The notes under the pieces were generated by a model. It made no database searches, was not told where the DNA came from, and saw nothing but the letters and a program-made list of their open reading frames with translations. 64,000 bases of DNA from a virus (taxonomy: Duplodnaviria; Heunggongvirae; Uroviricota; Caudoviricetes). The first letter of the stretch is position 1, and the number at the start of each line of letters is the position of its first letter. The position numbers and the translations under genes are program-made. Below, piece by piece: positions 42,762 through 63,944 of this stretch. The stretch covers positions 1-64,000 of IMG/VR virus record IMGVR_UViG_3300042905_002309; one strand, given 5' to 3'.

Positions 42762-42767
42762 AAATTG

Positions 42768-43252: not shown

Positions 43253-43259
43253 ATTAAAG

Positions 43260-43348
43260 TGGTGCATCTGACAAGAGTTGAACTTGTATTTGCCTAACGG
43301 CCTTTTGGGTTCGTAGCCCAACGTGCTAATCCATTACACTACAGATGC
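43260..43348 (-). tRNA. tRNA-Arg(ACG) with long variable arm
   Basis: TTGGG-CTACGAA-CCCAA; extra GCC-GTTA-GGC arm. Confidence 0.85.
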
Positions 43349-43355
43349 ATAAAAA

Positions 43356-43431
43356 TGGTGCAGACACTAGGATTTTAACCTAGAACAAGAGGATAGGAAC
43401 CTCACATGATGTACACTTTCACCATGTCTGC
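43356..43431 (-). tRNA. tRNA-Arg(CCT)
   Basis: GAGG-TTCCTAT-CCTC; CCA. Confidence 0.85.
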
Positions 43432-43437
43432 ATGAAA

Positions 43438-43513
43438 TGGCGCAGATACCAAGATTCGAACTTGGAATTAAAGGGTAGAAACCTATCGTGATAGTCCGTT
43501 TCACTATACCTGC
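43438..43513 (-). tRNA. tRNA-Arg(TCT)
   Basis: AGG-TTTCTAC-CCT; GCCA. Confidence 0.85.
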
Positions 43514-43521
43514 ATTAAAAT

Positions 43522-43597
43522 TGGAGCCAACAGTGACAATCGAAGTCACAGCCTTCACATTACCAATGTGATGTTCCGCCACTTGAACTATGTTGGC
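43522..43597 (-). tRNA. tRNA-Thr(GGT)
   Basis: TCACA-TTGGTAA-TGTGA; TCCA. Confidence 0.9.
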
Positions 43598-43602
43598 AAA
43601 AA

Positions 43603-43679
43603 TGGTCGGTCTGGTGGAAGTCGAATCCACATTATACTGGTTAAGAGCCAGTTCTATATGCCTTTCTAGTCACAGACCG
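43603..43679 (-). tRNA. tRNA-Lys(CTT)
   Basis: ACTGG-CTCTTAA-CCAGT; ACCA. Confidence 0.85.
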
Positions 43680-43684
43680 ATAAA

Positions 43685-43759
43685 TGGTGCTCCTATTGGG
43701 TATCGAACCCACTTCCCAAGGGTAAAAGCCTCGTGTTAATCCACTACAACTCTAGGAGC
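43685..43759 (-). tRNA. tRNA-Lys(TTT)
   Basis: CGAGG-CTTTTAC-CCTTG; ACCA. Confidence 0.85.
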
Positions 43760-43769
43760 GTAAAAAAAT

Positions 43770-43849
43770 TGGTGCGCCGAGTGAGAATTGAACTCACCTC
43801 GATCAATGTATAAGATTGAGCTAAATGCTACCAGCTTAGTTTTCGGCGC
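43770..43849 (-). tRNA. tRNA-Ile(TAT)
   Basis: TCAAT-CTTATAC-ATTGA; ACCA. Confidence 0.8.
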
Positions 43850-43853
43850 AAAA

Positions 43854-43931
43854 TGGTCAGCTAGGTCAGACTTGAACTGACAATATTCCTGTATCCAAAA
43901 CAGGTCGCCTACCAATTGGCATCACTAGCTG
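43854..43931 (-). tRNA. tRNA-Pro(TGG)
   Basis: C1:G72; CCTGT-TTTGGAT-ACAGG. Confidence 0.85.
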
Positions 43932-43941
43932 ATTAAAATTA

Positions 43942-44046
43942 TTTGTGGTCTATCCCCACCGTCAAATCAATGCTGGTTCACTTTAATCCTGTTGACCAGT
44001 AAATTCACCTATCACATCAGGGTTCGTAGGTGAAGATGTATTGATT
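43942..44046 (-). ncRNA. Three-way-junction RNA with possible kissing loops and conserved 3' hairpin
   Basis: AATCAAT/ATTGATT, TTCACCTA/TAGGTGAA, CTGGT/ACCAG; loops contain CCTG and CAGG. Confidence 0.5.
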
Positions 44047-44050
44047 AAAT

Positions 44051-44127
44051 TGGTCGGAGTAACAGGGATCGAACCTGCATGACTTATGGGCCCAGGCCAT
44101 ACGCTTCGCCAATTAAGCTATACTCCG
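44051..44127 (-). tRNA. tRNA-Pro (loop CCTGGGC; TGG, possibly GGG register)
   Basis: CGGAGTA/TACTCCG-ACCA; TATGG/CCATA stem. Confidence 0.85.
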
Positions 44128-44133
44128 ATAAAA

Positions 44134-44210
44134 TGGTCGGCTATGGTGGTAACGATCCACCCTTCTCTGTGTATCAGACAGAAGTAATCAAACCTATATA
44201 CTAATAGCCG
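44134..44210 (-). tRNA. tRNA-Ile(GAT)
   Basis: TCTGT-CTGATAC-ACAGA; ACCA. Confidence 0.85.
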
Positions 44211-44216
44211 ATAAAA

Positions 44217-44309
44217 TGGTGGCAATAGTAGGAATCGAACCTACCGTGTTTACCCGAAGGGAACAGATTTACAGTCTGCTACGACACAACCAATAGTCGT
44301 CTTACTGCC
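44217..44309 (-). tRNA. tRNA-Tyr(GTA)
   Basis: GCAGA-CTGTAAA-TCTGT; long variable arm; ACCA. Confidence 0.9.
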
Positions 44310-44537
44310 ATAAAAGGTTTTACTATGAATTCCTAGAAGTTTCCTTCATTAAAAAAGTCATTGGGATTAGAACGCTTCCAATCAGCGGTTGAATTCTCGA
44401 CTCTAACTGTGATTCAACAGACCTTATCTATTGAATAACATTCAACTTCTCACCGAATGAGGTTGAACTTAATCAACCCCTCTTCTACGAGATTTACTAA
44501 GGTTCCCCAACGCATCAGGGAATCCTTTAAACAATCT

Positions 44538-44595
44538 ATATTCAGTTTTCAAATATCTTCACAACATCTTTTAGCGTTGTAGGCACTTTCGCACC
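44538..44595 (-). promoter_or_regulatory. boxB-like GAAA hairpin and boxA-like element in leader of array 1
   Basis: GGTGC-GAAA-GTGCC, then TTTGAAAACTGAATAT identical to 54541-54556. Confidence 0.6.
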
Positions 44596-44677
44596 ATTTA
44601 TTAACAGCCCCATCGTCGCTGTTAACCTTGGATACCGTTCTTGTATCCTAACCGTTATAATATCAAGTCTATAAACG

Positions 44678-44704
44678 AAAAAACCCACCGTTTTACTGGT
44701 GGGT
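44678..44704 (-). terminator. Conditional (attenuator) terminator of array 1
   Basis: ACCCACC-AGTAAAAC-GGTGGGT-TTTTT; 5' strand can alternatively pair with GTGGGTGT at the end of the leader ORF. Confidence 0.8.
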
Positions 44705-44725
44705 GTGTGATCCTAATGATCCTAT

Positions 44726-44830
44726 TTAACACCCACTACAACCTGCATCAAAGCGTTCTATCGCCTTGGGCATCGGTTTCACAGTTCCTCTATAAATTTC
44801 ACAAACTCTATTCATAACTTCTCTCTTCAT
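44726..44830 (-). CDS. Attenuator leader peptide of tRNA array 1 (MKREVMNRVCEIYRGTVKPMPKAIERFDAGCSGC)
   Basis: 34-codon ORF directly after TATAAATA; ends on the antiterminator strand; codons correspond to array-1 anticodons. Confidence 0.75.
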   Translation of the reverse strand: MKREVMNRVCEIYRGTVKPMPKAIERFDAGCSGC

Positions 44831-44869
44831 TAACTATTTATAACAATCATATCACTTTTCTACAGAAAA

Positions 44870-45004
44870 TCAAGAAATATTTTCAACTTTCTTTTTACAT
44901 ACGGAATTCACTGCATATCTTATACAATTTCCGCACACTCTTCTGCCCTTGTTCCTTAGTAATTTTCTCTTACATCTAGAACAATGTACGTATCTCGTCT
45001 TCAT
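44870..45004 (-). CDS. Small basic zinc-finger protein (44 aa)
   Basis: Manual translation MKTRYVHCSRCKRKLLRNKGRRVCGNCIRYAVNSVCKKKVENIS; TTGACT promoter upstream. Confidence 0.45.
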   Translation of the reverse strand: MKTRYVHCSRCKRKLLRNKGRRVCGNCIRYAVNSVCKKKVENIS

Positions 45005-45058
45005 TGTTAATAACTTATCATGACACTCACTGGAAGTCAATAGGTATTTTGAAAATTG

Positions 45059-45496
45059 TTAAATAGATTTCTTTCGTTTGGGTGTTTTAGGTTCTTGTAC
45101 GGGTTTTTTATAATATACACCATGTATCATGATTAATCTATTTCGTATTGGACTTTTAGGATCGTTTGCCCATTTAAATAAATCTTCGATGCTGTATTTG
45201 TCGATAGGATATCCTTTTGAACACCAAGCATACAATGGTTCAATGATATCCAATGCTGTACCATCTTCATGAACTCTTTTAATCTCACCATTATGTATTC
45301 TTTCGACAACTTTTACACAATTTTCAAAAAACGCTAAATGTATGTCATAATAATCATCTACATGTTCTGGATCAAATAAACCCCGTTCTCCTGTAGCATT
45401 CCTTTTACTTGGTGGATTCTTTTTAAGATAATCTACAATATATTTCAAAGTATGTAAAACTGTTGTATACATCGTTGTTTCTTCTAATGTATTCAT
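45059..45496 (-). CDS. Hypothetical protein
   Basis: GGAG RBS, 4-nt overlap with upstream gene. Confidence 0.6.
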   Translation of the reverse strand: MNTLEETTMYTTVLHTLKYIVDYLKKNPPSKRNATGERGLFDPEHVDDYYDIHLAFFENCVKVVERIHNGEIKRVHEDGTALDIIEPLYAWCSKGYPIDKYSIEDLFKWANDPKSPIRNRLIMIHGVYYKKPVQEPKTPKRKKSI

Positions 45497-45909
45497 ATAT
45501 TACTCCCTACATTCGTCTTTAGTTGTCCTGTATACGCAGGATCAAGCTTGTGACGTTGGGCTGTCTCTCGTTCTACAGCTTTATCATGTGCATCATTGTA
45601 ATCCATCTTTGGATCAGCCTTCATTAATGATCTTTCATATACTTCGTGTTGAAAATTAAACCACATTTCCTTACGATCTTCCATCTCTTCTACCCAAATC
45701 TCGTCTTTAGGTACGTAGTCATAAACATATCCGTGTCCCCCTTCGACAAAATCAACATTAATATTTGAACGAACAAAATCACCATTTACAATGTATACGT
45801 TTACACCTTTAGCAATCTTGCTGTAGTTTGGCGAAAAGTGTTTCCAAGCTTGTTTTCCCGCTACCTTGGCATAATCTTTGAAATTCTTGAATGTGTGTTT
45901 AGTTTCCAT
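45493..45909 (-). CDS. Hypothetical protein
   Basis: DFVEGGHGYVY..EIWVE..HE..E...AH motif; operon-packed. Confidence 0.6.
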   Translation of the reverse strand: METKHTFKNFKDYAKVAGKQAWKHFSPNYSKIAKGVNVYIVNGDFVRSNINVDFVEGGHGYVYDYVPKDEIWVEEMEDRKEMWFNFQHEVYERSLMKADPKMDYNDAHDKAVERETAQRHKLDPAYTGQLKTNVGSNI

Positions 45910-46996
45910 TTGGCTCCGGTGTCTTTTGTTTTAAAATATCAGCAGTAAGGCTTCTTACAAGAGATTTAATTCTATTGATATCATCTGATGCATCTACATT
46001 GACAAACGCTGTATAAATTTTACTCAATATCTTTCGATATAATGGCTCATTCTTCTTGAAATTATCAAGATACTTATACATCCACTCCAATGTACCACGT
46101 TGTTTGCTATTATGGTATAAGAATCTATCACGATTAACAACCTGACTATAAAAGTCTTTCTTTGTCATATCTGAATGATAGGTGTAATACATATATTGTA
46201 ATCTACGAATAAAACTAACTAAATTTGTGTAATATTCGATTGGTCGCTTAACATGTTCAACTCTTCGTGTACCTTCTGTCTCTTGTGCGATTAATTTTGG
46301 TTTTCTTCCTAATGATGGTATTTTCATTAGGACTTTAGAAATAGCTTCTTCGGCTGATTTAGCAGATATTACGATAAGTTTGTTATTATATGCAAATGAT
46401 TGTCCATCCTTTTGCATTTCTGGTGTAGTTATTGTCCATTTCTTCAATTTATCAATCTTATAACCACGCATAGTGACATCAGTAGGTAACATCTTTCTTG
46501 ATGGAGTACCACCAATATGCTTTTCATACTCTTTAATTGACATATCTGGTAATAAACCCTTTTTAATCTTATAAGTCACTATCAAATACTGAATATAATG
46601 TAATAATTCATGTTCAGTTACATGTAATAGAAGTTCTGTTAAATTACTGTTTAAACTGATAGTAATATAACCTACACCATCTTTGATATTCTTTCCAAGG
46701 TCTTTATTTTCAGGATTAGTTTTAGTGAAAAAACTATCTTCATATTTATTGTTATTAATTAAGATGATATGAGGGTTTATTTCGTTCAAAAAAGCCCAAT
46801 TAGTGCCACTGAAATCAATAGCAAAATCTTTATTAGGAAAGGATTTACCTGAAAGCCGTTTAATACCTTCCCCTCGCACTTTCTTATAAGAGGCTATGAT
46901 TTGATCTTCAATATCCTTAAAAACATGCTTTGCGAGTGATATTGTCTCTAGTAGTATAGTCTCATCTAGTTTTGTAAAAATATTAAACTTAATCAT
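45899..46996 (-). CDS. Hypothetical late protein with HExxH motif
   Basis: EHELLHY; start reassigned to MIKFNIF after ATAAATA. Confidence 0.6.
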   Translation of the reverse strand: MIKFNIFTKLDETILLETISLAKHVFKDIEDQIIASYKKVRGEGIKRLSGKSFPNKDFAIDFSGTNWAFLNEINPHIILINNNKYEDSFFTKTNPENKDLGKNIKDGVGYITISLNSNLTELLLHVTEHELLHYIQYLIVTYKIKKGLLPDMSIKEYEKHIGGTPSRKMLPTDVTMRGYKIDKLKKWTITTPEMQKDGQSFAYNNKLIVISAKSAEEAISKVLMKIPSLGRKPKLIAQETEGTRRVEHVKRPIEYYTNLVSFIRRLQYMYYTYHSDMTKKDFYSQVVNRDRFLYHNSKQRGTLEWMYKYLDNFKKNEPLYRKILSKIYTAFVNVDASDDINRIKSLVRSLTADILKQKTPEPNGN

Positions 46997-47004
46997 GTAA
47001 CTAT

Positions 47005-47292
47005 TTATACACAATTCGGACAAATATAAGACATTTTTTTACCATGAAAAATCCAACCTACCCTAGCAGCTTCTTTCCAAGTGGTTTCTCGCTTACACCC
47101 CCCACAAAGAATCATGAAATTAGACGATAAAACCTCATCATAAACCAAATTTATAATGTTTTTATCCACTTTAGGTTTTGTAAGAAGTTTCTTGGATGTT
47201 TTCTTACAAGGTTTTGTCTGAAATTGTGCTTCTTTTTCAGACAAAACCTCAGAGTTAATTAAATTCAAAAGACTGTTTAAAGAGTCATTCAT
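47005..47292 (-). CDS. Hypothetical zinc-ribbon protein
   Basis: CGGC...GW...CPNC. Confidence 0.5.
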   Translation of the reverse strand: MNDSLNSLLNLINSEVLSEKEAQFQTKPCKKTSKKLLTKPKVDKNIINLVYDEVLSSNFMILCGGCKRETTWKEAARVGWIFHGKKMSYICPNCV

Positions 47293-47293
47293 T

Positions 47294-47785
47294 TTAATCG
47301 TGTTCTACTTTACATTCCAAGGTTTTCTTAATCTCAAATAAGTAATACATACAGATACTCTTTAAAAGATCAGGAACATCACAGATAGAGTTATGCATAG
47401 ATGAATCGCCAGTTAAGATGATATCTCCGTTATAAAATTTAGTTTGAATACGATAATACTGATTCAAAATATCTGTCACAAGTTCTGCATCAGGTTGGAC
47501 ATACTGATATCCACCAAGTCCACTATCTTCTTTTAATGCTTCCAATCTAGCGATTAATGTGGTAAGTTGTTCTGTCTCGCGTCTAAAATGTTTACCCATT
47601 AATTCGTTTCCCATAATATCTTTACGTCTATCGGTAAAGCGTTCAATCAAACTTTCTGGTTCAAAATAATCATACTGAAATTCTTGTGCAATTGACTCAC
47701 AAAAATCCATTATATTCACATCGTGAATACGTACAATATAACTTGCACTTGAACTGTTACTTACAAAACCGTTTCTTAATTTCAT
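47294..47785 (-). CDS. MKxRxGFVSNSSS-family phage protein
   Basis: MKLRNGFVSNSSSASYIV. Confidence 0.7.
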   Translation of the reverse strand: MKLRNGFVSNSSSASYIVRIHDVNIMDFCESIAQEFQYDYFEPESLIERFTDRRKDIMGNELMGKHFRRETEQLTTLIARLEALKEDSGLGGYQYVQPDAELVTDILNQYYRIQTKFYNGDIILTGDSSMHNSICDVPDLLKSICMYYLFEIKKTLECKVEHD

Positions 47786-48030
47786 GATCTCTCCCAATTT
47801 ACTATATCTTCTTCGACTCCAATGTTCACTAAAAATTCACGCATATCAAAATTATCCATAGAAGTATAACCTTCTACTGTGTGTGTTGTAACAGTAATAG
47901 TCCAAGGATTGTCATTAGTATGATCTGAATGATTCACAATATCAACTAATTGTTTAGCTGTAATCTTTATTAAAGGGATTACAAAGCTACTTGAGCTACT
48001 ATTACTTACAAATCCAATTCTTATTTTCAT
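47782..48030 (-). CDS. MKxRxGFVSNSSS-family phage protein
   Basis: MKIRIGFVSNSSSSSFVI; GGAG RBS. Confidence 0.7.
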   Translation of the reverse strand: MKIRIGFVSNSSSSSFVIPLIKITAKQLVDIVNHSDHTNDNPWTITVTTHTVEGYTSMDNFDMREFLVNIGVEEDIVNWERS

Positions 48031-48031
48031 A

Positions 48032-48226
48032 TTATCTCCAAATTCTCCTATAACCATCAACGGGAAACATCTGTCTAAAAATTCTTTTTGGTGCAGTTTC
48101 AATATCTCTATGATAAAGCATTGAGAATATACAGAATTTACCAATAAAATACTTATATACAACGCCACTTAAAGGATACATGAAGATTGCGGGTACATAC
48201 CAAACCTTTTCTCGTGTTCTTTTCAT
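48032..48226 (-). CDS. Small hypothetical protein
   Basis: AAGGAG RBS; tightly packed. Confidence 0.45.
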   Translation of the reverse strand: MKRTREKVWYVPAIFMYPLSGVVYKYFIGKFCIFSMLYHRDIETAPKRIFRQMFPVDGYRRIWR

Positions 48227-49011
48227 GTTTGACTCCTTATTAATTCTATAATATTTGGTGGTGTATAATATTTTTTGAGTTTACTTAAATCCATAATACT
48301 ATTTACCAAATGTAATCCTTGTTGTCTACGTATTTCTTCAATACTGATAATCTCTTTCTTCATTCCCATCAATAATCCGATTTCATGCATACTGACATAA
48401 CCATCACATGCCACATTATAGGCTCCTGTGCATTCATTATCAATCAAAATCTTAATCGCTTTTGTTAATATTGTAACATTGGTTACACTGTCCTTTTCGT
48501 CACACAACTTATCAAAGCGTTTTATTTTGTTTAGTAAATTGTTTTCACGAGCACTAAAATCAAAAAATAATCTTGGTCGTATAATCAAATCTCTGTCAAA
48601 ATCACAACCCTTTTCGCCATGCCATTTTGTTAAGGTGTAATTACAATGTGCGGAAAGAAAATCTGTCTCCTTTTGTGGTGTATCGTTTCTGTCGTATAAG
48701 CAACCAGTTGAAATCTGTACAAATTTCTTATTACCACCATTGCACCATTGACTTAAAACCTGTGGAATAACAGCATTACTAAAAAATGCCTCATTATAAT
48801 TCTCTTCACAATATCTAGTATTACTCTTCGCAATACAATTTATTACCACATCAAATTTATCTAATTTTCTTGCCATATAAAACGGAAATTCTAATGAATC
48901 GTTTATTTGGATTTGTGATAAATTGAACCTTTCCTTATCAAGAACCGTATAATGAAGTTTTTCGAACTCATGTCCTAAATACCCCGAACCTAATACTACA
49001 ACTTTATTCAT
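48223..49011 (-). CDS. RmlD-like NAD(P)-dependent sugar-nucleotide reductase/epimerase
   Basis: VVLGSGYLG, VINCIA, QISTGC, YTLTK (YxxxK). Confidence 0.8.
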   Translation of the reverse strand: MNKVVVLGSGYLGHEFEKLHYTVLDKERFNLSQIQINDSLEFPFYMARKLDKFDVVINCIAKSNTRYCEENYNEAFFSNAVIPQVLSQWCNGGNKKFVQISTGCLYDRNDTPQKETDFLSAHCNYTLTKWHGEKGCDFDRDLIIRPRLFFDFSARENNLLNKIKRFDKLCDEKDSVTNVTILTKAIKILIDNECTGAYNVACDGYVSMHEIGLLMGMKKEIISIEEIRRQQGLHLVNSIMDLSKLKKYYTPPNIIELIRSQT

Positions 49012-49013
49012 AC

Positions 49014-49205
49014 TTACTTCTCCATATGTATCGTTTTTCGACAAAGAATTTCCTGACAAAACATTTTTACTGCATCAGGTGCTTTATTAAACTCATCTAC
49101 AGCCTCATCATATAACCATTTTGTTAAGTATTGTACCTGTGATCCATTTTTATAGACCACTACATAAGATTTAGATTCAATAAATTCTTCTACTTTTTGT
49201 TTCAT
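49014..49205 (-). CDS. Small hypothetical protein
   Basis: AGGAG RBS; packed ORF. Confidence 0.45.
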   Translation of the reverse strand: MKQKVEEFIESKSYVVVYKNGSQVQYLTKWLYDEAVDEFNKAPDAVKMFCQEILCRKTIHMEK

Positions 49206-49555
49206 ACTGTTATAATCTCCTTACCACCTTTAATACCTTTACGTATAGTGTCCTCAGTTCCCCCTGTACGATCATCTGATACTACAGCCAATATCACATC
49301 AGCATCATCAGCTATTAACCCATTACGTTGGAAACCAGCACTCTTTCCATACTTTCGCCAATCAGCGTAATGTATTCTGATAGGAATGTCAAGATGTTTT
49401 GCAATAATTTCAGCAAATCTATCTCCACCTTGTGGACATCCTCCGCTACACAAAGAGTCTCCCCTGCGATAAATCTCTAAGAATTTATTCAAACAACGTT
49501 TGAAATCTTCTGGTGAGTTTTTACGTCTAGAACCGATTATGCCGATTACTTTCAA
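49202..49555 (-). CDS. SLOG-family (YspA/DprA-like) protein
   Basis: IIGSR, SGGCPQGGD, AGFQRN, GGTEDT. Confidence 0.75.
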   Translation of the reverse strand: MKVIGIIGSRRKNSPEDFKRCLNKFLEIYRRGDSLCSGGCPQGGDRFAEIIAKHLDIPIRIHYADWRKYGKSAGFQRNGLIADDADVILAVVSDDRTGGTEDTIRKGIKGGKEIITV

Positions 49556-49845
49556 TCATACTCCTTAATAGAAACACCGGGAGATTCCATTCCAGTAAAT
49601 CGTGTATCACCTTCTGGTATACATACGGGACAAGCTTCGTCATGTGCATAATCTGGACAAATACAAACTGGTGGACGTTTATTCCAAACTTCAATAGCTT
49701 GTTCATCTGTAGTAAACCATACACCCGCACCCAAAGAACCACCACATTGTTTCTCGTCTATACAACTTACAAACTTCTCACCAAAACCACCAGTGAAGAC
49801 TTGTGCTTCACCACCACAAAACGGACAAGGAAAAATTTTATTCAT
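49552..49845 (-). CDS. Lar-like restriction-alleviation zinc-finger protein
   Basis: PCPFCGG...AIEVWNKR. Confidence 0.65.
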   Translation of the reverse strand: MNKIFPCPFCGGEAQVFTGGFGEKFVSCIDEKQCGGSLGAGVWFTTDEQAIEVWNKRPPVCICPDYAHDEACPVCIPEGDTRFTGMESPGVSIKEYD

Positions 49846-49875
49846 GTAAATATCATACCAGATTTATTAGGATTG

Positions 49876-51009
49876 TCAACCATTATAATAATCAGTTAAC
49901 TCACCCTTATAATTCTCAATAACAACATTCACACCTTCTACACTTTTAATGTAGTTGTAAATAATAGGTATCTTTCCACCACCAGCGGGTAAGTCTACAA
50001 CTAATTGAGGTATAGCATATCCACTAATATTACCTCTAATGCTTTTAAAAATCTCAATACCCTTCTCAATAGTTGTTCTAAAATGACCTGAACCAGTTAC
50101 CTTATCACAAATGTATGTATAATAAGGCTTTACACGTATTTTTAATAACCCTGTGAATAATTTTTTAAGGGTTTCACTATCATCATTAACATCTTTCAAT
50201 AATACTGTCTGACTTCCTAAAGGTATACCTGCATCAGCCAATCTATTACAAGCTTCTTGGGTTTCTGGTGTCAATTCACTAGGATGTGTGAAATGTAGAC
50301 TCATAAACAATGGATGATATTGTTTTAACATGTCAGTTAATTCTTTTGTAATACGTTGAGGTAATACAGCAGGAATTTTTGTACCAATTCGAATCATTTC
50401 AACATGAGGAATTTTACGTAAATTTGAAAGTATCCATTCTAAGGTTTCTGTTGGTAAAGTTAAAGGATCACCACCAGAAATTAACACATCTCGTATCTCT
50501 TTATGTTCTTCGATGTATTTAAGTGACTTCATCCATTGTTCTTTAGTATATGTTTTATCTTTACCAACCATACGTGATCGTGTACAATACCTACAAATGG
50601 TGCTACAATAGTCTGTAACGAGAAATAATACTCTATCTGGATATCTGTGTACCAAACCATCTACAGGGCTTTGGTTGATCTCATGAAGTGGATCATCTTG
50701 TTCACATTGTGAGATGATATGTTCCTCATCGGAAGGCATTACTGTTTTTCTTAGCTTATCACCCAATATGGATGCATAATAAGGAGTAATACCCATAGGA
50801 AATTTGTAATTATTATCAGTAGTATCGATAATTCGGTTTCTTAATTGCCATCTCCAATCATTCCATTCAACATAAGGTACACTTGGATAGTTTTGCTCCA
50901 TAAACCCATGTGTTATTGGGCCTATGGGCATACTACTCGGAGGCTTATCTGATTCTTCGGAACAACACTCAACAGCTTCAACCACATCGACGATTTTTTC
51001 ATTTTGCAT
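49876..51009 (-). CDS. kamA: KamA-family radical SAM enzyme (lysine 2,3-aminomutase/EpmB-like)
   Basis: WNDWRWQ, LVHRYPDRVL, CSTICRYCTR, LISGGDPL, QTVLLKDVND, GGGKIP. Confidence 0.9.
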   Translation of the reverse strand: MQNEKIVDVVEAVECCSEESDKPPSSMPIGPITHGFMEQNYPSVPYVEWNDWRWQLRNRIIDTTDNNYKFPMGITPYYASILGDKLRKTVMPSDEEHIISQCEQDDPLHEINQSPVDGLVHRYPDRVLFLVTDYCSTICRYCTRSRMVGKDKTYTKEQWMKSLKYIEEHKEIRDVLISGGDPLTLPTETLEWILSNLRKIPHVEMIRIGTKIPAVLPQRITKELTDMLKQYHPLFMSLHFTHPSELTPETQEACNRLADAGIPLGSQTVLLKDVNDDSETLKKLFTGLLKIRVKPYYTYICDKVTGSGHFRTTIEKGIEIFKSIRGNISGYAIPQLVVDLPAGGGKIPIIYNYIKSVEGVNVVIENYKGELTDYYNG

Positions 51010-51125
51010 ATATATAATATTTTTACTTCCCTTAAATGTATTTAGGTATATTAACCTAAAATTCTTGAACTTTTTTAATGTATCATAAATAGATGAAAAT
51101 TACAAGGTATTTGATAAATACTTAT

Positions 51126-52172
51126 ATGAATATTTTTCGTACTCTATATGAACAGATACTTTTTGAAGCACTTTGGGACTCTGATGCAGTAAATACCGGA
51201 GATTCCCCATTCTTAGGGAATGTGTATCGTGTTTATGAGTTGGAATACAAGCTTCAAGCCCTAAAACGCTCACAATTAGGTATATCTAATCCTAAAAGAT
51301 TGGAAAATATCACTAGACAAGTACAATTAGAACTTGGTTCTGCTGGTATGGCACTTAAACAAATTTTATTGAATACTTTTGCGCTTTGGTTACAACAACA
51401 TGCTTTAACTAAACCTCAAATTTGGGCAGAAGGACGTTATAATACATTTACGGAATCTGGTGACGATGATCCAAATACAATGATGGAAGGTATTGTTGGT
51501 GAATATAGTAGATATGCTACTGGTGGTAAAGTTGATAGATATGGTGTACGTGCGATGTTATCTGTTGACCAATTCTTTCCAATAATCGATAAAAATTTAA
51601 AAAATCTTCCATACACTAAATCCGTTCTTGATTCTGTTTATAAAATTTACATGCAAGAAGAATATGATAATGATCCAGAAGGTACTATGGAACGTTGGGG
51701 GATATCTACACCAGAAGAAGCTGATCAACATATTGAAACATCTACTTTAGATCAAGATGGACTTGAAGGTATGGTATATGACATGGAATCTTTAATGGGG
51801 ATTATAGAACAACATGGAGAGTTATCAAAATTCTTCATTGAACTTTATGCGAAACTTGTTTTCCCTGTTTGGTTTGCACATTGGAAGGCTCAAGGTATCG
51901 TGGAAACTCGTAAACGTGTTCAAAATGTTTATAATAATCTTAAAAAAGCTTCTCCAAAGGATTTGGGTAATCTAGTTGCATGGCTTAGTGCAGCTTTAAA
52001 TACTGCTCATCAATCTGGTTCAATGTTAGATTTTGTTCCAGAAGATGATAACTTCTCTGTAAACATTGATGGCGCAGAAGATACCTATTATGCAAAAGAT
52101 TTATTAGATGCTGTAACAGATGGTAAATTCAATGACCAATGGGATAAAGAATTAGCCGAAGCTGGTGTGTAA
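51126..52172 (+). CDS. Hypothetical late protein, acidic
   Basis: Start reassigned to MNIFRTLYEQILFE after ATAAATA. Confidence 0.65.
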   Translation: MNIFRTLYEQILFEALWDSDAVNTGDSPFLGNVYRVYELEYKLQALKRSQLGISNPKRLENITRQVQLELGSAGMALKQILLNTFALWLQQHALTKPQIWAEGRYNTFTESGDDDPNTMMEGIVGEYSRYATGGKVDRYGVRAMLSVDQFFPIIDKNLKNLPYTKSVLDSVYKIYMQEEYDNDPEGTMERWGISTPEEADQHIETSTLDQDGLEGMVYDMESLMGIIEQHGELSKFFIELYAKLVFPVWFAHWKAQGIVETRKRVQNVYNNLKKASPKDLGNLVAWLSAALNTAHQSGSMLDFVPEDDNFSVNIDGAEDTYYAKDLLDAVTDGKFNDQWDKELAEAGV

Positions 52173-52211
52173 AATACTGAATATTTGAAAAGTGTTTAGT
52201 TATTCGATCAT

Positions 52212-52350
52212 TGCTTTCTGAGATAGGATTCGAACCTACATTTTGTTTCCGCACCCAATGACAGGCGGCATGTGTTAATCCACACACAGCAGAGTTACCC
52301 GTAGTGTAAACGGGAGTTACCGCAGGGTAAGCCAGTTCCCCCACTCATTA
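52212..52350 (-). ncRNA. tRNA-like RNA with branched insertion in place of the anticodon loop
   Basis: D-arm GGG-AACTGGCTTA-CCC, T-arm GTAGG-TTCGAAT-CCTAT, GCGGTA/TGCCGC stem enclosing two hairpins. Confidence 0.55.
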
Positions 52351-52358
52351 ACTAAAAT

Positions 52359-52434
52359 TGGTGCGCCTAGAGGGACTTGAACCCCCAAAACTCAGCTTCT
52401 TAGACTGATATGTATGCCATTCCATCATAAGCGC
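52359..52434 (-). tRNA. tRNA-Leu(AAG), short variable loop
   Basis: TCAGT-CTAAGAA-GCTGA; ACCA. Confidence 0.85.
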
Positions 52435-52438
52435 ATAA

Positions 52439-52601
52439 AACGAATTCTAAAATAATATGGAGTCTGCACCACCACTAAGACCAAGTTAGTCTATTTTCGG
52501 TGTACTATTCGCAACCTTTTGTGAACCGTGTCGTCAATGTTCTTCAACATCCCGTAGTACGTTTCTTCCACGCTTAAATAACTTCGCTAACTATTTTAGA
52601 A
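52439..52601 (-). ncRNA. ~160-nt structured RNA between Leu tRNAs
   Basis: TTCTAAAATA/TATTTTAGAA closing stem, internal hairpins. Confidence 0.45.
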
Positions 52602-52603
52602 AT

Positions 52604-52679
52604 TGGTGCTAGTGGTGGGACTTGAACCCACAAACAACAGATTTTAAGTCTGCCCGATAAGCCGTTCTCGTACACTAGC
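52604..52679 (-). tRNA. tRNA-Leu(TAA), short variable loop
   Basis: GCAGA-CTTAAAA-TCTGT; ACCA. Confidence 0.85.
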
Positions 52680-52685
52680 GTAAAT

Positions 52686-52761
52686 TGGTGCATCTGGTGG
52701 GATTCGAACCCACAAAACCTAGATTCTAAGTCTAGTACATAAGCCGTTCTGTTACAGATGC
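52686..52761 (-). tRNA. tRNA-Leu(TAG), short variable loop
   Basis: CTAGA-CTTAGAA-TCTAG; ACCA. Confidence 0.85.
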
Positions 52762-52767
52762 GTTAAA

Positions 52768-52843
52768 TGGTGCAAGTGAAGGGATTCGAACCCTTAAACA
52801 ACAGTTTTTGAAACTGCCCGATAAGCCTTTCTCGTACACTTGC
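52768..52843 (-). tRNA. tRNA-Leu(CAA), short variable loop
   Basis: GCAGT-TTCAAAA-ACTGT; ACCA. Confidence 0.85.
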
Positions 52844-52850
52844 ATAAAAT

Positions 52851-52927
52851 TGGTTCCCCCATCATGATTCGAACATGATCTAAGATGGTCAAAGCATCTT
52901 GTGCATAAGCCATTACACTATAGGGGA
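52851..52927 (-). tRNA. tRNA-Gln(TTG)
   Basis: AGATG-CTTTGAC-CATCT; T1:A72. Confidence 0.85.
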
Positions 52928-52937
52928 ATGTTAAAAT

Positions 52938-53011
52938 TGGTTGTCCTACCTTGAATCGAACAAGGTTAAATAGATTCAGAGTCTACTGTACAGCCATTAT
53001 ACCATATGACA
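52938..53011 (-). tRNA. tRNA-Gln(CTG)
   Basis: GTAGA-CTCTGAA-TCTAT. Confidence 0.85.
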
Positions 53012-53019
53012 GATAAAAT

Positions 53020-53093
53020 TGGAGCCTGTTAAGGGAATTAAACCCTTACCCACTGATTACGAAACAGTGATACTATCGTTGTACTAAACAGGC
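53020..53093 (-). tRNA. tRNA-Thr(CGT)
   Basis: ACTG-TTTCGTAAT-CAGT; TCCA. Confidence 0.85.
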
Positions 53094-53101
53094 AATTAAA
53101 A

Positions 53102-53195
53102 TGGAGCCAACGGTGGGATTTGAACCCACATCATCACTTTTACATGACTTAACCCGATTACAAATCGGGGCCATAGCCGTTCTGGACACGTTGGC
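53102..53195 (-). tRNA. tRNA-Thr(TGT) with long variable arm
   Basis: CCCGA-TTTGTAA-TCGGG; ~23-nt variable region. Confidence 0.85.
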
Positions 53196-53202
53196 AAGTA
53201 AA

Positions 53203-53278
53203 TGGAGCACCCGACAGGCATCAAACCTGCAACCTTGTCCTTACAAAAGACTTGCTCTATCAATTGAGCTACAGGTGC
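53203..53278 (-). tRNA. tRNA-Thr(TGT), second copy
   Basis: GTCT-TTTGTAA-GGAC; TCCA. Confidence 0.8.
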
Positions 53279-53284
53279 GAAAAT

Positions 53285-53358
53285 TGGCAGGAACACAGGG
53301 ATTCGCACCCTGACCAAAAGTTTTGGAGACTATTGTGCAACTTTAACACTTTGTTCCT
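53285..53358 (-). tRNA. tRNA-Trp(CCA)
   Basis: AGT-CTCCAAA-ACT; AGG/CCT-GCCA. Confidence 0.85.
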
Positions 53359-53365
53359 ATAAAAT

Positions 53366-53459
53366 TGGAGGAAGGTGGGAGAATTGAACTCCCGCCACCT
53401 TTTAAGGGGTGGAACAATTTAGCAAATTGTCTCGACAAACCGACATTCGACTACCTTCC
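53366..53459 (-). tRNA. tRNA-Ser(GCT)
   Basis: ACAAT-TTGCTAA-ATTGT; long variable arm. Confidence 0.9.
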
Positions 53460-53464
53460 AAAAT

Positions 53465-53562
53465 TGGCTGACTCGGCTCGACTTGAACGAGCACACACAT
53501 CCCGTTAAGAATGTCATGGATGGTTTAACAGACCATTGCCTTACCATTAGGCCAACGAGTCA
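53465..53562 (-). tRNA. tRNA-Asn(GTT) with long variable arm
   Basis: ATGGT-CTGTTAA-ACCAT; ~27-nt variable region; GCCA. Confidence 0.85.
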
Positions 53563-53638
53563 AACTTAAATTGTTTCTTGATATCGTGTCAAGGACGCTT
53601 GATTTGCACAAGGGGTTACGTTTACCCAATATTCAAAA

Positions 53639-53725
53639 TGGCTCCAGAGGTAGGACTTGAACCTACACGCCCATTACAGGCATCAGATTAACAGTCTGAC
53701 ATGGCTACAATTACATCACTCTGGA
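53639..53725 (-). tRNA. tRNA-Asn(GTT) with long variable arm, second copy
   Basis: TCAGA-CTGTTAA-TCTGA; GCCTG-TAA-TGGGC arm; GCCA. Confidence 0.85.
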
Positions 53726-53732
53726 AACGAAA

Positions 53733-53829
53733 AACAAGTTGGCTTTCTACTTTTTATTTAGCGTCTAAAAATCGAAAAAGACTGATTATGGACTCTCGCC
53801 CACGTTTTATTGTTTGCTGTAACCAACTT
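53733..53829 (-). ncRNA. CAGCAAA-loop RNA family, copy b
   Basis: AAGTTGGT/GCCAACTT stem; ACAGCAAACAA; TTCGA; AAAAAGTAGAAA; GTT. Confidence 0.65.
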
Positions 53830-53836
53830 AAAATAA

Positions 53837-53947
53837 AACAGATTGTGTTTTCTACTTTTTAGAGAACGTCGAAACTCCCATCTTTTTGATTTATGTGATC
53901 GTCTGGTGGATCACTAACGTATTGTTGTTTTTTGCTGTACACAATCT
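53837..53947 (-). ncRNA. CAGCAAA-loop RNA family, copy c
   Basis: AGATTGTGT/ACACAATCT stem; ACAGCAAA; GTTTCGA; AAAAAGTAGAAA; GTT. Confidence 0.65.
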
Positions 53948-53951
53948 AAAA

Positions 53952-54029
53952 TGGCTAACCCTGCTGGACTCGCACCAGCAAAAATTGACTAACGTTAATT
54001 GTCAACTTTCGGCTACTAGCTAAAGGTTA
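53952..54029 (-). tRNA. Aberrant tRNA, anticodon undetermined
   Basis: Intact acceptor stem, T-arm and GCCA; reduced D-arm; 11-nt loop AATTAACGTTA. Confidence 0.55.
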
Positions 54030-54036
54030 ATGAAAA

Positions 54037-54133
54037 TGGAGGAAGCGGTGGGATTCCAACCCACGGAGGATAGTTTGAGCTACCCCCTTCCGTTTTCAAG
54101 ACGGACGCAATAAAGACGCTCTGCCACGCTTCC
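54037..54133 (-). tRNA. tRNA-Ser(TGA)
   Basis: TCCGT-CTTGAAA-ACGGA; long variable arm. Confidence 0.9.
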
Positions 54134-54141
54134 ATAAAATA

Positions 54142-54309
54142 AACAGGTTGATTTTCCTACTTTTTACACAGAAAATCGAAACTGTCACAAGTTTTACATC
54201 AGTAGATCACGATGTCAGGTTTTTATTTATGTGTCGCCTAGATAAAGACACTATGCCCGAAGGCATTTATTTACTATTTAGTTTATTGTTTGTTTGCTGC
54301 AATCAACCT
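54142..54309 (-). ncRNA. CAGCAAA-loop RNA family, copy d
   Basis: AGGTTGATT/AATCAACCT stem; GCAGCAAACAA; several hairpins; GTTTCGA; AAAAAGTAGGAAA; GTT. Confidence 0.65.
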
Positions 54310-54314
54310 AAAAT

Positions 54315-54390
54315 TGGGGCGATATACGAGACTTAAACTCGCTCTAAAACATTCACAGTGTTTCGTGCTAATCATTACACTAATATCGCC
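54315..54390 (-). tRNA. tRNA-His(GTG)
   Basis: G-1:C73; AAACA-CTGTGAA-TGTTT. Confidence 0.9.
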
Positions 54391-54477
54391 ATTGTGGGAC
54401 TTCATACCACGTTTGGGCCAAGCTAGAGGCTTATAGTGTGGGTTTGTCGTCCCTAAAATCTTTATAACTTGCCAGAT

Positions 54478-54529
54478 ATGGCGCATTAATGGCTATTATG
54501 GCACATTAATCGTCGTATTTGGCGCATTA
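54478..54529 (-). repeat. Three TAATGYGCCA repeats at ~20-nt period
   Basis: TAATGCGCCA, TAATGTGCCA, TAATGCGCCA. Confidence 0.65.
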
Positions 54530-54540
54530 CTACTTTTCAA

Positions 54541-54582
54541 ATATTCAGTTTTCAAAAATCGTGTTGTGCTTTCGCAATCAAC
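54541..54582 (-). promoter_or_regulatory. boxB-like GAAA hairpin and boxA-like element in leader of array 2
   Basis: TGC-GAAA-GCA hairpin, then TTTGAAAACTGAATAT. Confidence 0.6.
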
Positions 54583-54589
54583 TTCTAAT

Positions 54590-54617
54590 ACTTTATCACA
54601 ACTTCAAAAAATGTCAA
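54590..54617 (-). promoter_or_regulatory. Sigma70-like promoter for array 2, downstream of the attenuator
   Basis: TTGACA-N16-TAAAGT with extended TG. Confidence 0.6.
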
Positions 54618-54627
54618 CCCATAAAAC

Positions 54628-54660
54628 AAAAAACCCTAATCTTTTTTTAAGATCAGGGTT
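54628..54660 (-). terminator. Conditional (attenuator) terminator of array 2
   Basis: AACCCTGATCTT-loop-AAGATTAGGGTT-TTTT; 5' strand can alternatively pair with TAAGGTCAGG starting at the leader stop codon. Confidence 0.8.
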
Positions 54661-54685
54661 ATAGTTGACAATATAATACCTGACC

Positions 54686-54742
54686 TTATCTCTTATGTAA
54701 GAGATTAGACCATGTTGTACTATTTTGCAATGACGTTTTCAT
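54686..54742 (-). CDS. Attenuator leader peptide of tRNA array 2 (MKTSLQNSTTWSNLLHKR)
   Basis: 18-codon ORF after CTAAATA; stop codon begins the antiterminator strand; codons correspond to array-2 anticodons. Confidence 0.8.
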   Translation of the reverse strand: MKTSLQNSTTWSNLLHKR

Positions 54743-54787
54743 ATTGTTATAATTATTTAGTATATCCATTCAACTTTTCAATAAAAT

Positions 54788-55096
54788 TTATGAGAAATAT
54801 TTAGTTACATCAAATTCTTTTAATGTTTTTGGTGGAACACCAGCTTGTTCCAACTTTAAAACTACACTTTTAGCTTGTTTAATATACGGTTTAACATTAT
54901 GAGAAAGTCGTTGTAAAATTTCAATTTTATTTTTAACATCATTTTCGATATTATCAATATTCTTTAAAACTGTTGTACCATCACTACCTAACATTTGATT
55001 ACCATCTAACCATGTTGTCAAGAAATATCTATATGTGCCAGTAATCTCTTCACAAATTAAACCCATTTTTTCGTAATCTTTATCATCAAATCTCAT
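54788..55096 (-). CDS. Hypothetical protein
   Basis: CTAAATA promoter and AGGTG RBS. Confidence 0.55.
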   Translation of the reverse strand: MRFDDKDYEKMGLICEEITGTYRYFLTTWLDGNQMLGSDGTTVLKNIDNIENDVKNKIEILQRLSHNVKPYIKQAKSVVLKLEQAGVPPKTLKEFDVTKYFS

Positions 55097-55131
55097 AATA
55101 TCACCTAATTCCTTTTAAGTATTTAGTTGCA

Positions 55132-55437
55132 TTAAATCTCAATCTTGTTCAATTCACCAATCTTATTATTAAGATCGATTAAAGTCAACTTAATTGTTTT
55201 TGATTTAGGTGCATCGACATTAACGCCTAAAACATATAAAATCTTTCTAATCACACCCATAATAGCGTTACATGCATCGATAGTTTTACCGATATCTTCT
55301 GCATATTTGTTCTTACTGGCATCCAATTGTTCTCTAGTGTTTTTCAATACAATAACACTAGTACCCAACACATCGTAAATTTGCACAAGAGCATTCTTAA
55401 TATTCCCCAACTTAAACATAGTTTTAAACCAATTCAT
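55132..55437 (-). CDS. Hypothetical helical protein
   Basis: GAAGGA RBS; amphipathic helices. Confidence 0.55.
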   Translation of the reverse strand: MNWFKTMFKLGNIKNALVQIYDVLGTSVIVLKNTREQLDASKNKYAEDIGKTIDACNAIMGVIRKILYVLGVNVDAPKSKTIKLTLIDLNNKIGELNKIEI

Positions 55438-55460
55438 AATTTTATCCTTCTTTCTTATAA

Positions 55461-55739
55461 TTATTTATCACGTTTCTTGATATTTACAAGATAATCTTCT
55501 TCGGAAACATTAAAAAGGTCAGATTCAGAGATAGACCATCTGTAATTCTGTTCATTATGTATTACACCTCTGGTATCGGTATAAACACCAGCAGGTAAGC
55601 GATATGGGCTATCTCCCGATGTTAGTGGTATGTTGGTGTAGTCGGGTTTAGGTTGGGTCGTACAACCCGATATATTTAACATCATGATTAAACCAATACC
55701 AACCCAAATTGTTGCCAATACATGTTGAATATATTTCAT
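55461..55739 (-). CDS. Putative lipoprotein (possible o-spanin)
   Basis: Hydrophobic signal ending ISG-C lipobox; GGAGAGG RBS. Confidence 0.5.
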   Translation of the reverse strand: MKYIQHVLATIWVGIGLIMMLNISGCTTQPKPDYTNIPLTSGDSPYRLPAGVYTDTRGVIHNEQNYRWSISESDLFNVSEEDYLVNIKKRDK

Positions 55740-55740
55740 A

Positions 55741-56367
55741 TTAACCTCTCCAAGTTTTATCAAATGGATCACCCCAATTATTACCAAGTTCTGGTGAATT
55801 TGCTACCATTGTTCCTAATTCCTTCTCTACATATTTAGCAATACAAGATACTTCATCACATTGTGGGAAAGTCTCTTGAACATTTGCCTTTACATATACA
55901 CGAATGATATATGTATATTTAGCACAATGTTCACATTTAGGAGGTTCTATTCCAAAGACATTTACTTCTGGTTTAATTTCACCTAATCCACCACGATATG
56001 GTAACTCATAAAAGAAAATTACACTACTATCAGCAAAATGTGTTACTAATTTATCCATACTATCGAATGAATAATCTTTTGTGTTATATGTCTCATTATT
56101 CATTTTGATAATAGGACCAAATCCTTCACCTACAATAAATATAGTTTTATCAGGATATTTTTCCTTCATTGCTTCTACTAACATATCTTTTGTTACAAGT
56201 TTAGTATATGTTTTATGTGTTACCTTCCATGATAATATTTCATTATCTCGTTTAAGCGAATTAATTTGTTGATATAAATCTTCGATCTGGTATAATAATT
56301 GATTCTCTCTATTATTAAGAGGTGGATTGAATTGTTCCTTAATTAATGCTGTTGTTAGTTCTTTCAT
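55741..56367 (-). CDS. Hypothetical protein
   Basis: 208-aa ORF, AAGGA RBS. Confidence 0.55.
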   Translation of the reverse strand: MKELTTALIKEQFNPPLNNRENQLLYQIEDLYQQINSLKRDNEILSWKVTHKTYTKLVTKDMLVEAMKEKYPDKTIFIVGEGFGPIIKMNNETYNTKDYSFDSMDKLVTHFADSSVIFFYELPYRGGLGEIKPEVNVFGIEPPKCEHCAKYTYIIRVYVKANVQETFPQCDEVSCIAKYVEKELGTMVANSPELGNNWGDPFDKTWRG

Positions 56368-62480: not shown

Positions 62481-63944
62481 TTACATGTAGACGTGTGCGG
62501 CCCCGGGCACAAAGGCTTCACCAAGACCCTTGACTATCAACAAGTGATAGAACATAGAGCTTCCGAAGATATGATCTACAACACCATAACGTGTAAGCAA
62601 ACCAACTCTTGGTGCAAAGTCATTAGGTCCAATTGTGCGTTGAATCATAACCGGGATGTAAGGACAGTATACCAAACCAGTGTCATAATAATCAGCACCC
62701 TTGTATCCAAGCAATGCGTATTCTACGATAGCGGTACGTTGACCCTGTTGGTACTGGGCTTCTGTACGTGTATCTCTGTAGATATTAAAACGACCACCGA
62801 CTGAACCAACCTTGGCAATACCCGTAGGCTGTGTATTGACAGTTCCATTCACTTGCATGAACTTGAACTCAGGAAGGTTTTCCAAGATTGAACACACTCT
62901 TGGTGTTGCAATAATGAAGTTAGCAGGACCACGACGATTGTTGATAGCAATACGGTTTGCTTCAATAATGATACGGGCATACAAGTCACGATTACGTTCA
63001 CCGATCCAACGGGCATCAGCAGAACCAGCGTACCAGAATGAATAACCCTTACCCTTGTTTGTAGGTCCACCAGCGGTTAAGCAGATTTGAACCATACGCA
63101 TAATCATTTCACGGTCAATTTCAGCCTGAATTTCATAACTCATTGCATTGGTCATTTCTGAGTCAATGTCAATACCGTTCATGTTCTTCAAGTCTTGTTC
63201 CAACTCAACGCTCCACTTTGCAGCTAAACGTCTTGTACCAGCTTCAACGCTTGTCTTCTCCATACTGATAGTCATCTGAGGAATCTTACCAGACATTTCG
63301 AATTGAGCAAGAAGGGCTGCTACACCAGAGTCAACTCCATTGTATGCAGGATCAAATACTCCAGCTAAACCAACTAAGCTGTTTGAGCTTACGCCAGTAT
63401 GCATAGTATTAAGATTATTCCAACCAACTTCGGTCTGACCTGAAAGTACTGTATTACTAGTACCTGTCCAAGTATTACCACCAACGCCATTAGCTGTCCA
63501 ACCAGAAGGATCACGACCATCACTATTACCCGTATATCCACCAAGACTGTTATCATCATAGCGGTAACGAAGTGCGAAAGCCAAACCAACGGGTCCACTC
63601 ATAGGCTGAACACCGACGATTTCATTAGTAATCAATTCAGGGAAAGTACGACGAATCATGGGAATTAATACTTTAGGTAAACGTGCGTCACCTGGAGCAT
63701 AATTGTCACCAGAATAAGGAGTACCCATATTTCCACCGCTACCAAATACTCCACCTTGTCCAGCGAAGCTATTTTCGGTCAAATACTTTTCTTGGTTTTC
63801 CAAAAGTACGGCTGTACTTAAACGCTTGTGAGAATCTTCCAAAGCAGGAACCTTATCGGAGCTATAGTCCAAAACGGGTTTCCACTTTTCGAGCAATTGT
63901 GTTGCTCTACTGCGATCTACATATCCACTTGCTTGTGTTATCAT
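62481..63944 (-). CDS. gp23: Major capsid protein, T4 gp23-like
   Basis: LLEKWKPVL, LLENQE, GVQPMSGPVGL.FALR, R.L.AKWS.EL.QDLK, YCPYIP, TRYG. Confidence 0.95.
   Translation of the reverse strand: MITQASGYVDRSRATQLLEKWKPVLDYSSDKVPALEDSHKRLSTAVLLENQEKYLTENSFAGQGGVFGSGGNMGTPYSGDNYAPGDARLPKVLIPMIRRTFPELITNEIVGVQPMSGPVGLAFALRYRYDDNSLGGYTGNSDGRDPSGWTANGVGGNTWTGTSNTVLSGQTEVGWNNLNTMHTGVSSNSLVGLAGVFDPAYNGVDSGVAALLAQFEMSGKIPQMTISMEKTSVEAGTRRLAAKWSVELEQDLKNMNGIDIDSEMTNAMSYEIQAEIDREMIMRMVQICLTAGGPTNKGKGYSFWYAGSADARWIGERNRDLYARIIIEANRIAINNRRGPANFIIATPRVCSILENLPEFKFMQVNGTVNTQPTGIAKVGSVGGRFNIYRDTRTEAQYQQGQRTAIVEYALLGYKGADYYDTGLVYCPYIPVMIQRTIGPNDFAPRVGLLTRYGVVDHIFGSSMFYHLLIVKGLGEAFVPGAAHVYM

Follow-up and report, generated by a model that had tools for sequence, protein, structure and literature searches.

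Leader 2, which precedes the second of two tRNA arrays in a T4-like lake phage, is probably a ribosome-lag, translation-coupled transcription attenuator for tRNA genes, a reading to which we assign a probability of roughly 0.78. The first-pass annotation of this DNA had proposed an attenuator, and that part of its interpretation is well supported by the statistics of the sequence, by modelled folds and by the reappearance of the design in phages that are not related; the interpretation as a whole was upheld in part. Judged from its sequence, the feature is real, and it combines the attenuator characteristics that can be tested at that level, namely an ORF of cognate codons, an intervening terminator and a mutually exclusive antiterminator. 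What appears to be new is the placing of leader-peptide-type attenuation on tRNA genes; the attenuator architecture itself is already known.

The window analysed here is the first 64 kb (64,000 nucleotides) of a 248,016-base virus record, and all of its features given with coordinates below lie on the minus strand. A gp23-like major capsid protein is encoded at 62481-63944, and the best matches in cultured phages are only ~34-35% identical to it. Near-identical DNA occurs in lake metagenomes, with at least half of the sequence words present in 22 of 24 runs among the matches listed. ARAGORN identified 36 tRNAs in two arrays, both on the minus strand: array 1 (44309-40086), also covered by Rfam, and array 2 (54389-52359), with Rfam matches for most of its genes. 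An initial ARAGORN run that permitted introns was too loose and was applied only within the arrays. Array 2 encodes tRNAs for His, Ser (two), Asn (two), Trp, Thr (three), Gln (two) and Leu (four). An additional Val call (53952-54029) is doubtful, being Val-like with an 11-nt anticodon loop, and was excluded from the amino acid set on account of that loop and the lack of an Rfam match; Gln-TTG also lacked an Rfam match. Array 1 carries the amino acids complementary to those of array 2, plus Thr-GGT and an odd, tRNA-like Asn-ATT gene (41232-41306); its Phe tRNA was identified with relaxed ARAGORN settings and Rfam, and its Cys tRNA by eye.

Several tRNAs of array 2 have unusual shapes. Long variable arms, which are not typical of Thr or Asn tRNAs, are present in one Thr-TGT and both Asn-GTT genes (53102-53195, 53465-53562 and 53639-53725), and all four Leu tRNAs, Leu-AAG among them, are short (76 nt). 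The two arrays are separated by a gene for a lysine 2,3-aminomutase-like radical SAM protein (49876-51009) and an RmlD-like gene (48223-49059). Matches to the KamA-like protein, at 48-58% identity, were scattered over many phyla and indicated no host, and a blastn comparison of the array with cultured phages gave matches to single tRNAs only.

The leader 2 ORF (54742-54686) stands ahead of array 2 and has 18 codons, with its ATG at 54742 and its TAA ending at 54686. Its coordinates and codons were re-read and agree with the earlier listing: Leu is specified by TTG, CTC and TTA, Ser by TCA, TCT and AGT, and Thr by ACG and ACA; Trp, His, Gln and Asn are represented, and CAG and CTA are absent. 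All seven amino acids of array 2 (H, L, N, Q, S, T, W) are found in the leader, and the only codons outside this set are K2, K17 and R18. The tRNAs of array 2 read 14 of the 17 codons that follow the start, against a fraction of 0.345 expected from phage genes (P=7.3e-5). Windows of 17 codons taken from phage genes equalled this match in 6 of 54,522 cases, and at least 14 matches together with all seven amino acids arose in 20 of 2,000,000 simulated peptides. Composition by itself does not single out the leader, since 7 other small ORFs, of 3,735 genome-wide, do as well or better for array 2; the case depends on where the leader lies and on its sister ahead of array 1.

That sister, leader 1, occupies 44830-44683 ahead of array 1 and comprises an ORF of 34 codons (44830-44726), a predicted antiterminator and a terminator (44704-44683). 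Its ORF contains all 15 amino acids of array 1, whose tRNAs read 32 of its 33 codons, placing it first among the 3,735 small ORFs. Leu, Gln, Trp and His are all absent from it, so that its set is complementary to that of leader 2, and neither leader lacks an amino acid of the array that it heads. Even Thr is divided by isoacceptor, with ACT in leader 1 (Thr-GGT is in array 1) and ACG and ACA in leader 2, an observation that is weak when taken alone. The single outsider codon of leader 1, S32, lies past the edge of its modelled switch (near codon 29), and the strength of its antiterminator duplex was equalled in 86 of 5,000 shuffles. An early-type motif (44873-44846) and a late-type motif lie upstream of leader 1, and the promoter scan flagged no site downstream of its terminator.

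These findings bear on a rival account, that the hairpin is the ordinary terminator of the upstream operon, that a downstream promoter alone drives array 2, and that the ORF is there by chance. The stretch from the upstream genes to the leader 2 terminator contains no further terminator-like site, array 2 is matched equally well by seven more small ORFs, and the leader 2 ORF has no Shine-Dalgarno sequence, a signal present in 119 of 247 phage genes (background 6%). Against this, a complete and complementary leader occupies the same position before both arrays, a late-type promoter-like motif separates the upstream gene from the ORF, and the survey and permutation results described below show the same association elsewhere. 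We consider this alternative very improbable.

The late-type promoter-like motif, CTAAATA-ATTAT, is at 54760-54749, with a predicted start at ~54748 and a 5′ UTR of ~6 nt. CTAAATA by itself, which had been put forward as the promoter signal, is not enriched in the genome (71 sites, compared with 92-112 in five shuffles). The longer pattern TAAATA(G/A)TTAT is enriched genome-wide, with 16 sites against 1-5 in shuffles; this pattern was drawn with the leader 2 site in view. It presumably resembles a T4-type late promoter (TATAAATA-like, -10-only). An ATG exactly 5 nt past the late-type core precedes 12 of 339 ORFs, as for leaderless late messages, and the ATG of leader 2 is 11 nt after its core. 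Translation of the ORF, which would proceed from a near-leaderless late transcript, is something that we can only infer, given the ~6-nt 5′ UTR and the missing Shine-Dalgarno sequence. An in-frame ATG 9 codons upstream of the leader 2 start could yield a 27-codon form. Two metatranscriptome runs from one sample contained 12-17% of the sequence words in low-depth contigs from which neither transcript ends nor expression could be read; a CAA to CAG change at 54725, in a 151-nt contig, has a depth of 2 and is too thin to use.

Three predicted helices define the putative switch. Helix 1:2 (54712-54679; -10.0 kcal/mol) pairs 54712-54699 with the end of the ORF and the antiterminator strand, and when no ribosome is modelled it extends across most of the ORF (-16.9). 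The inverted repeat that the first-pass annotation had noticed at the end of the ORF is real (54705-54699 with 54694-54688) and forms the core of this longer helix; its suggested role as a pause hairpin is at present a sequence feature, with helix 1:2 predicted and its inner part compatible with the antiterminator. The predicted antiterminator, helix 2:3 (54688-54648; -13.0 kcal/mol), consists of 54688-54679 paired with 54657-54648 and an inner 5-bp stem. The first of these pairings bears out the earlier claim of a 10-bp duplex between the stop-codon strand and the terminator, with one G-U pair. Helix 3:4, with its U tail, is an intrinsic terminator-like hairpin by sequence (54660-54622, hairpin 54660-54632; -14.9 kcal/mol). 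Leader 2 RNA folds with a z-score of -5.07, and none of 200 shuffles folded as well; the best 2:3 duplex, at -14.3, was matched by 49 of 5,000 shuffles. In the folding models the terminator and the predicted antiterminator are mutually exclusive, and a ribosome can block the antiterminator. The pairs of leader 2 itself have no covariation support, since no close homolog was found, and two neighbouring proteins are likewise without relatives in viral contigs.

For the full-length RNA at equilibrium, the terminator is favoured at all ribosome positions (P 0.99-1.0), so any read-through switch must be kinetic. We modelled this by cutting the transcript before the 3′ arm of the terminator and giving the ribosome a footprint of 10 nt. 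In the cut transcript, the probability of the antiterminator is ~0.87 with the A site at codon 15 or earlier, 0.74 at codon 16, and at most 0.33 from codon 17 onward. The switch point was modelled with three footprints and three transcript lengths, and its edge moves by one codon with footprints of 7 or 13 nt. Two of the three mismatched codons, K17 and R18, are past the modelled switch point, and the third, K2, is near the start. Without a ribosome, helix 1:2 (-16.9) forms earliest and must be displaced by the antiterminator form (-21.1), which leaves the outcome of an early stall, or of an untranslated leader, uncertain.

The survey of other viral tRNA arrays drew on three motif scans of viral contigs, gp23 loci and stretches of four gp23 relatives. 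At least 427 terminators were collected, and 44 with too little downstream DNA were removed. Among the matches listed, an ORF of up to 55 codons with all 20 amino acids preceded 6 of the 24 terminators that head at least 12 tRNAs and none of 329 control terminators; random 40-mers contain all 20 amino acids in 0.6% of cases. Partial arrays had partial leaders (L379, L346, L402, L393, L272 and one of two in L350), with sets such as Val, Pro, Leu, Ala, Gly and Gln (L379) or Ile, Thr and Gln (L346). The L272 leader lacks Phe, Pro, Arg and Ser, and the same four are absent from the known part of its array. Across 18 pairs of leader and array, the score with own arrays was 24.8 against a mean of 7.5 with swapped arrays, a value reached in 0 of 100,000 permutations. 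For the 13 pairs left after removal of this window and four related entries, the figures were 16.5 and 5.2, again with 0 of 100,000 and a best permutation of 16.4. The poor matches (L203, L256, L414, L338 and L059) were retained in these permutations, which control for kinship only roughly.

The geometry of these leaders is also recurrent. In 22 of 35 array heads, compared with 37 of 329 controls, an ORF ends 24-36 nt upstream of the terminator, the range having been set post hoc, and antiterminator pairing above 0.5 was predicted for 21 of 28 array leaders, compared with 158 of 329 controls (48%), among the matches listed. Under a strict filter, only 18 of the 51 arrays with at least 12 tRNAs among the matches listed had a terminator in front. 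In one gp23 relative (G001, 67% identity; L199/L464) the arrangement is the same, and the peptide, of 22 codons, is a different one in which the amino acids of its own array abound. The sequence TTGTCAACTA, just before the leader 2 terminator (54661-54672), recurs in the leader of this relative (L464:5001-5047) and contains TTGACA on the opposite strand without a -10 partner. As a handle on homologs, a motif shared with this relative was set aside: in viral contigs it recovered the relative alone, and at 13 metagenome loci there was no tRNA array behind it. Some of the surveyed arrays hold other genes, including tRNAs with a CTA (amber-reading) anticodon in or near L272 (at the array end), L346, L380 and L489, and tmRNA genes within leader-headed arrays (L199:5995-6453 and L379:4686-5069).

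A different kind of switch could in principle produce this architecture, one that is real but senses the general slowing of ribosomes by toxins, antibiotics or ribosome shortage, with the codon match an incidental feature or a relic. The modelled window spans nearly the whole ORF, so that any delay would count, and antibiotics that target translation induce the tRNA array of Anabaena according to the available part of PMC10272220. The survey points the other way: in unrelated phages, leaders follow the amino acids of the arrays that they head, and leaders 1 and 2 are complementary, which a general sensor would not need. On balance we think it unlikely that general slowing is what leader 2 senses.

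Covariation could be examined in a sister family of leaders, collected with a pattern built from the central residues of one leader, which fixes seven diverse residues and yielded 120 loci. All 118 complete matches lie within short frames, and a tRNA is no more than 400 nt away in 71 of the 75 loci with enough flanking sequence. The 76 unique leaders have 16-20 amino acid types in 31-34 codons, and their peptide is conserved. Structures were drawn by eye from those same sequences for 39 of the 76. In these, pairing stands at 94.7% in the antiterminator helices, where 6 of 17 pairs have changed on both sides, and at 95.1% in the terminator, where 6 of 11 have; neither result was reached in 500 shuffles. 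The modelled switch of this family is sharp, at ~14 codons before the stop. This covariation supports the class of predicted structures, not the individual pairs of leader 2.

The sister family also informs another alternative, in which the ORF is translated and its codons are matched to the array, and the output is something other than termination: the ORF would determine how stable the tRNA precursor is or how it is processed, or the released leader RNA or the peptide would act in trans. A conserved peptide in 76 unique sequences would suit such a role, as would the equilibrium preference for the terminator and the promoters that lie past the terminator in 10 of 28 arrays among the matches listed. 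It fits poorly with the pairing of the ORF end to the terminator arm, which covaries in the sister family, with the close spacing of stop codon and terminator in 22 of 35 array heads against 37 of 329 controls, and with peptides that are unrelated between clades. Such an output seems improbable to us, and attenuation the better account.

Cultured phages offer examples as well. Three of the five examined (phiCbK, S-PM2 and Atu_ph07) have a leader before a terminator and tRNAs. In phiCbK it is gp083, annotated as hypothetical and followed by an annotated terminator and tRNAs for Pro, Lys, Leu and Ser; in Atu_ph07 it is AUZ95228.1, with 18 amino acid types; and in S-PM2 it contains the sister-family motif and is unannotated on that strand. 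S-CRM01 gave a loose candidate only, and the filter used found no leader in XacN1. A tblastn search with the sister-family peptide returned no cultured match, though S-PM2 carries the motif.

Downstream of the leader 2 terminator lies a sigma-70-type promoter-like site with an extended -10 element (54617-54590), which corresponds to the TTGACA-16-TAAAGT promoter recognized in the first-pass annotation, with an added TG. It is one of 27 sites of the form TTGAC...TG.TA...T in the genome, compared with 1-5 in shuffles. Among the matches listed, a similar site comes after the terminator of 10 of 28 array leaders, compared with 7 of 329 controls, and it comes after none of 13 other terminators in the genome of this phage; by this count a promoter-like bypass past the terminator is a recurring feature. 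Two or three tandem sites of this type, like the tandem promoters of rRNA operons, lie between the terminator and the first tRNA in L356, L338, L218 and L379. The downstream promoter may provide a basal, probably early, supply of tRNAs that bypasses the switch, as in the scheme of unconditional early and conditional late expression conjectured in the first-pass annotation, and could render the switch minor.

Other short elements surround the arrays. A 15-mer is present after both leader terminators (54542-54556 and 44539-44553) and nowhere else in the genome, and its 13-base core occurs at 2 sites in 248 kb, one before each array. We take it to resemble the boxA of rRNA leaders, hinting at Nus-type antitermination through the arrays. 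It was rejected as a handle on leaders, since a tRNA was called at only 11 of 117 loci among the matches listed; leaders were seen by eye in L049 and L051, and several matches were chance or intra-array occurrences. A 10-mer, unique in the genome, is present in three copies spaced by 21 and 20 nt (54479-54529), between the downstream promoter-like site and tRNA-His, and these copies are possible protein-binding sites. Within the arrays, repeated non-tRNA elements lie between tRNAs (54301-54150, 53939-53845, 53821-53740 and at 42753). Each has a short stem strand and CAGCAAA at its start; in array 2, all three finish with AAAAAGTAG(A/G)AA and the complementary strand. No fitting Rfam family was found for them.

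Leader-peptide attenuators are well known from amino acid operons, including trpL, hisL, leuL and pheL, the multivalent thrL, ilvGMEDA and ilvBN, and pheST. Leader 2 appears to share with them a short ORF rich in the sensed codons, predicted 1:2, 2:3 and 3:4 helices that overlap, and a terminator before the controlled genes. Those attenuators control enzymes or a synthetase, whereas the genes downstream of leader 2 are tRNAs, and for that reason it is not an amino-acid-operon attenuator in the narrow sense. It differs further in sampling each of its seven amino acids (elsewhere up to 20) between one and three times instead of in runs, and in having a sensing window that seems to take in the entire ORF. 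It also belongs to a phage, and its terminator is followed by a second promoter. In T-box riboswitches, one uncharged tRNA is bound directly and no ORF is needed; the choice between terminator and antiterminator is likewise set by tRNA status. A T-box is ruled out here by the absence of an Rfam match at the locus, the T-box model giving none up to E=1 within 39000-56000. Rfam likewise gave no leader family at this locus, and none among the 150 of 159 matches listed for 8 other loci. Upstream ORFs that sense translation stress are known from whiB7, topAI and ABCF leaders. They resemble the switch proposed for leader 2 in that ribosome slowing on the ORF activates downstream genes, and differ in controlling protein genes with a composition that does not mirror a tRNA set. 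The trn operon of Anabaena PCC 7120 is, in the available part of its description, a tRNA array that translational stress induces, and the control lies with the repressor TrcR, which binds DNA at the promoter; attenuation, a leader or a uORF is never mentioned in that part (PMC10272220). Nor did the accessible portions of PMC3152331, PMC12482277 and PMC10272220 mention attenuation of tRNA arrays. Our literature search found no description of attenuated tRNA arrays, with most subscription and older papers and supplements outside its scope.

The attenuator that we favour would operate as follows. A ribosome moving in step with RNA polymerase would cover the strand at the stop codon and allow the terminator to form. 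Delay on array-2 codons would leave the antiterminator strand free and let RNA polymerase enter the tRNA genes. In the model, an A site no further than codon 15-16 as the 5′ arm of the terminator emerges would favour the antiterminator, and one at codon 17 or beyond the terminator. Since the modelled window makes a delay anywhere in codons 3-16 count, the arrangement would suit a sensor that sums over seven amino acids. The signal may be a shortage of charged, intact tRNA caused by host tRNA cleavage or decay or by late-infection demand; loss or overload of tRNA is a likelier signal than amino acid limitation, because extra tRNA is no cure for amino acid famine. The newly made tRNAs would then close a negative feedback loop. 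Coupling of transcription and translation in the host, which the scheme would need, cannot be assumed.

A leader mirroring its array implies that tRNAs are supplied as needed and not as constitutive support for codon bias, which bears on the purpose of large phage tRNA sets and on the timing of their expression. The hypothesis of host tRNA depletion becomes directly testable with phiCbK gp083, the unannotated ORF of S-PM2 and Atu_ph07 AUZ95228.1, and the leader offers a compact reporter of tRNA damage. The finding would also extend attenuation to genes for stable RNAs and to the simultaneous sensing of 7-20 amino acids. A broader proposition, to which we give even odds, is that large phages widely audit host decoding with a "test message" that mirrors each tRNA block, exactly in its amino acids and in part in its isoacceptors, so that only a block in short supply is transcribed. 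If this is true, the leader and its array would be rewritten together at each splitting of an array, and tRNA arrays would constitute an inducible, block-wise counter to the tRNA-cleaving defences of the host.
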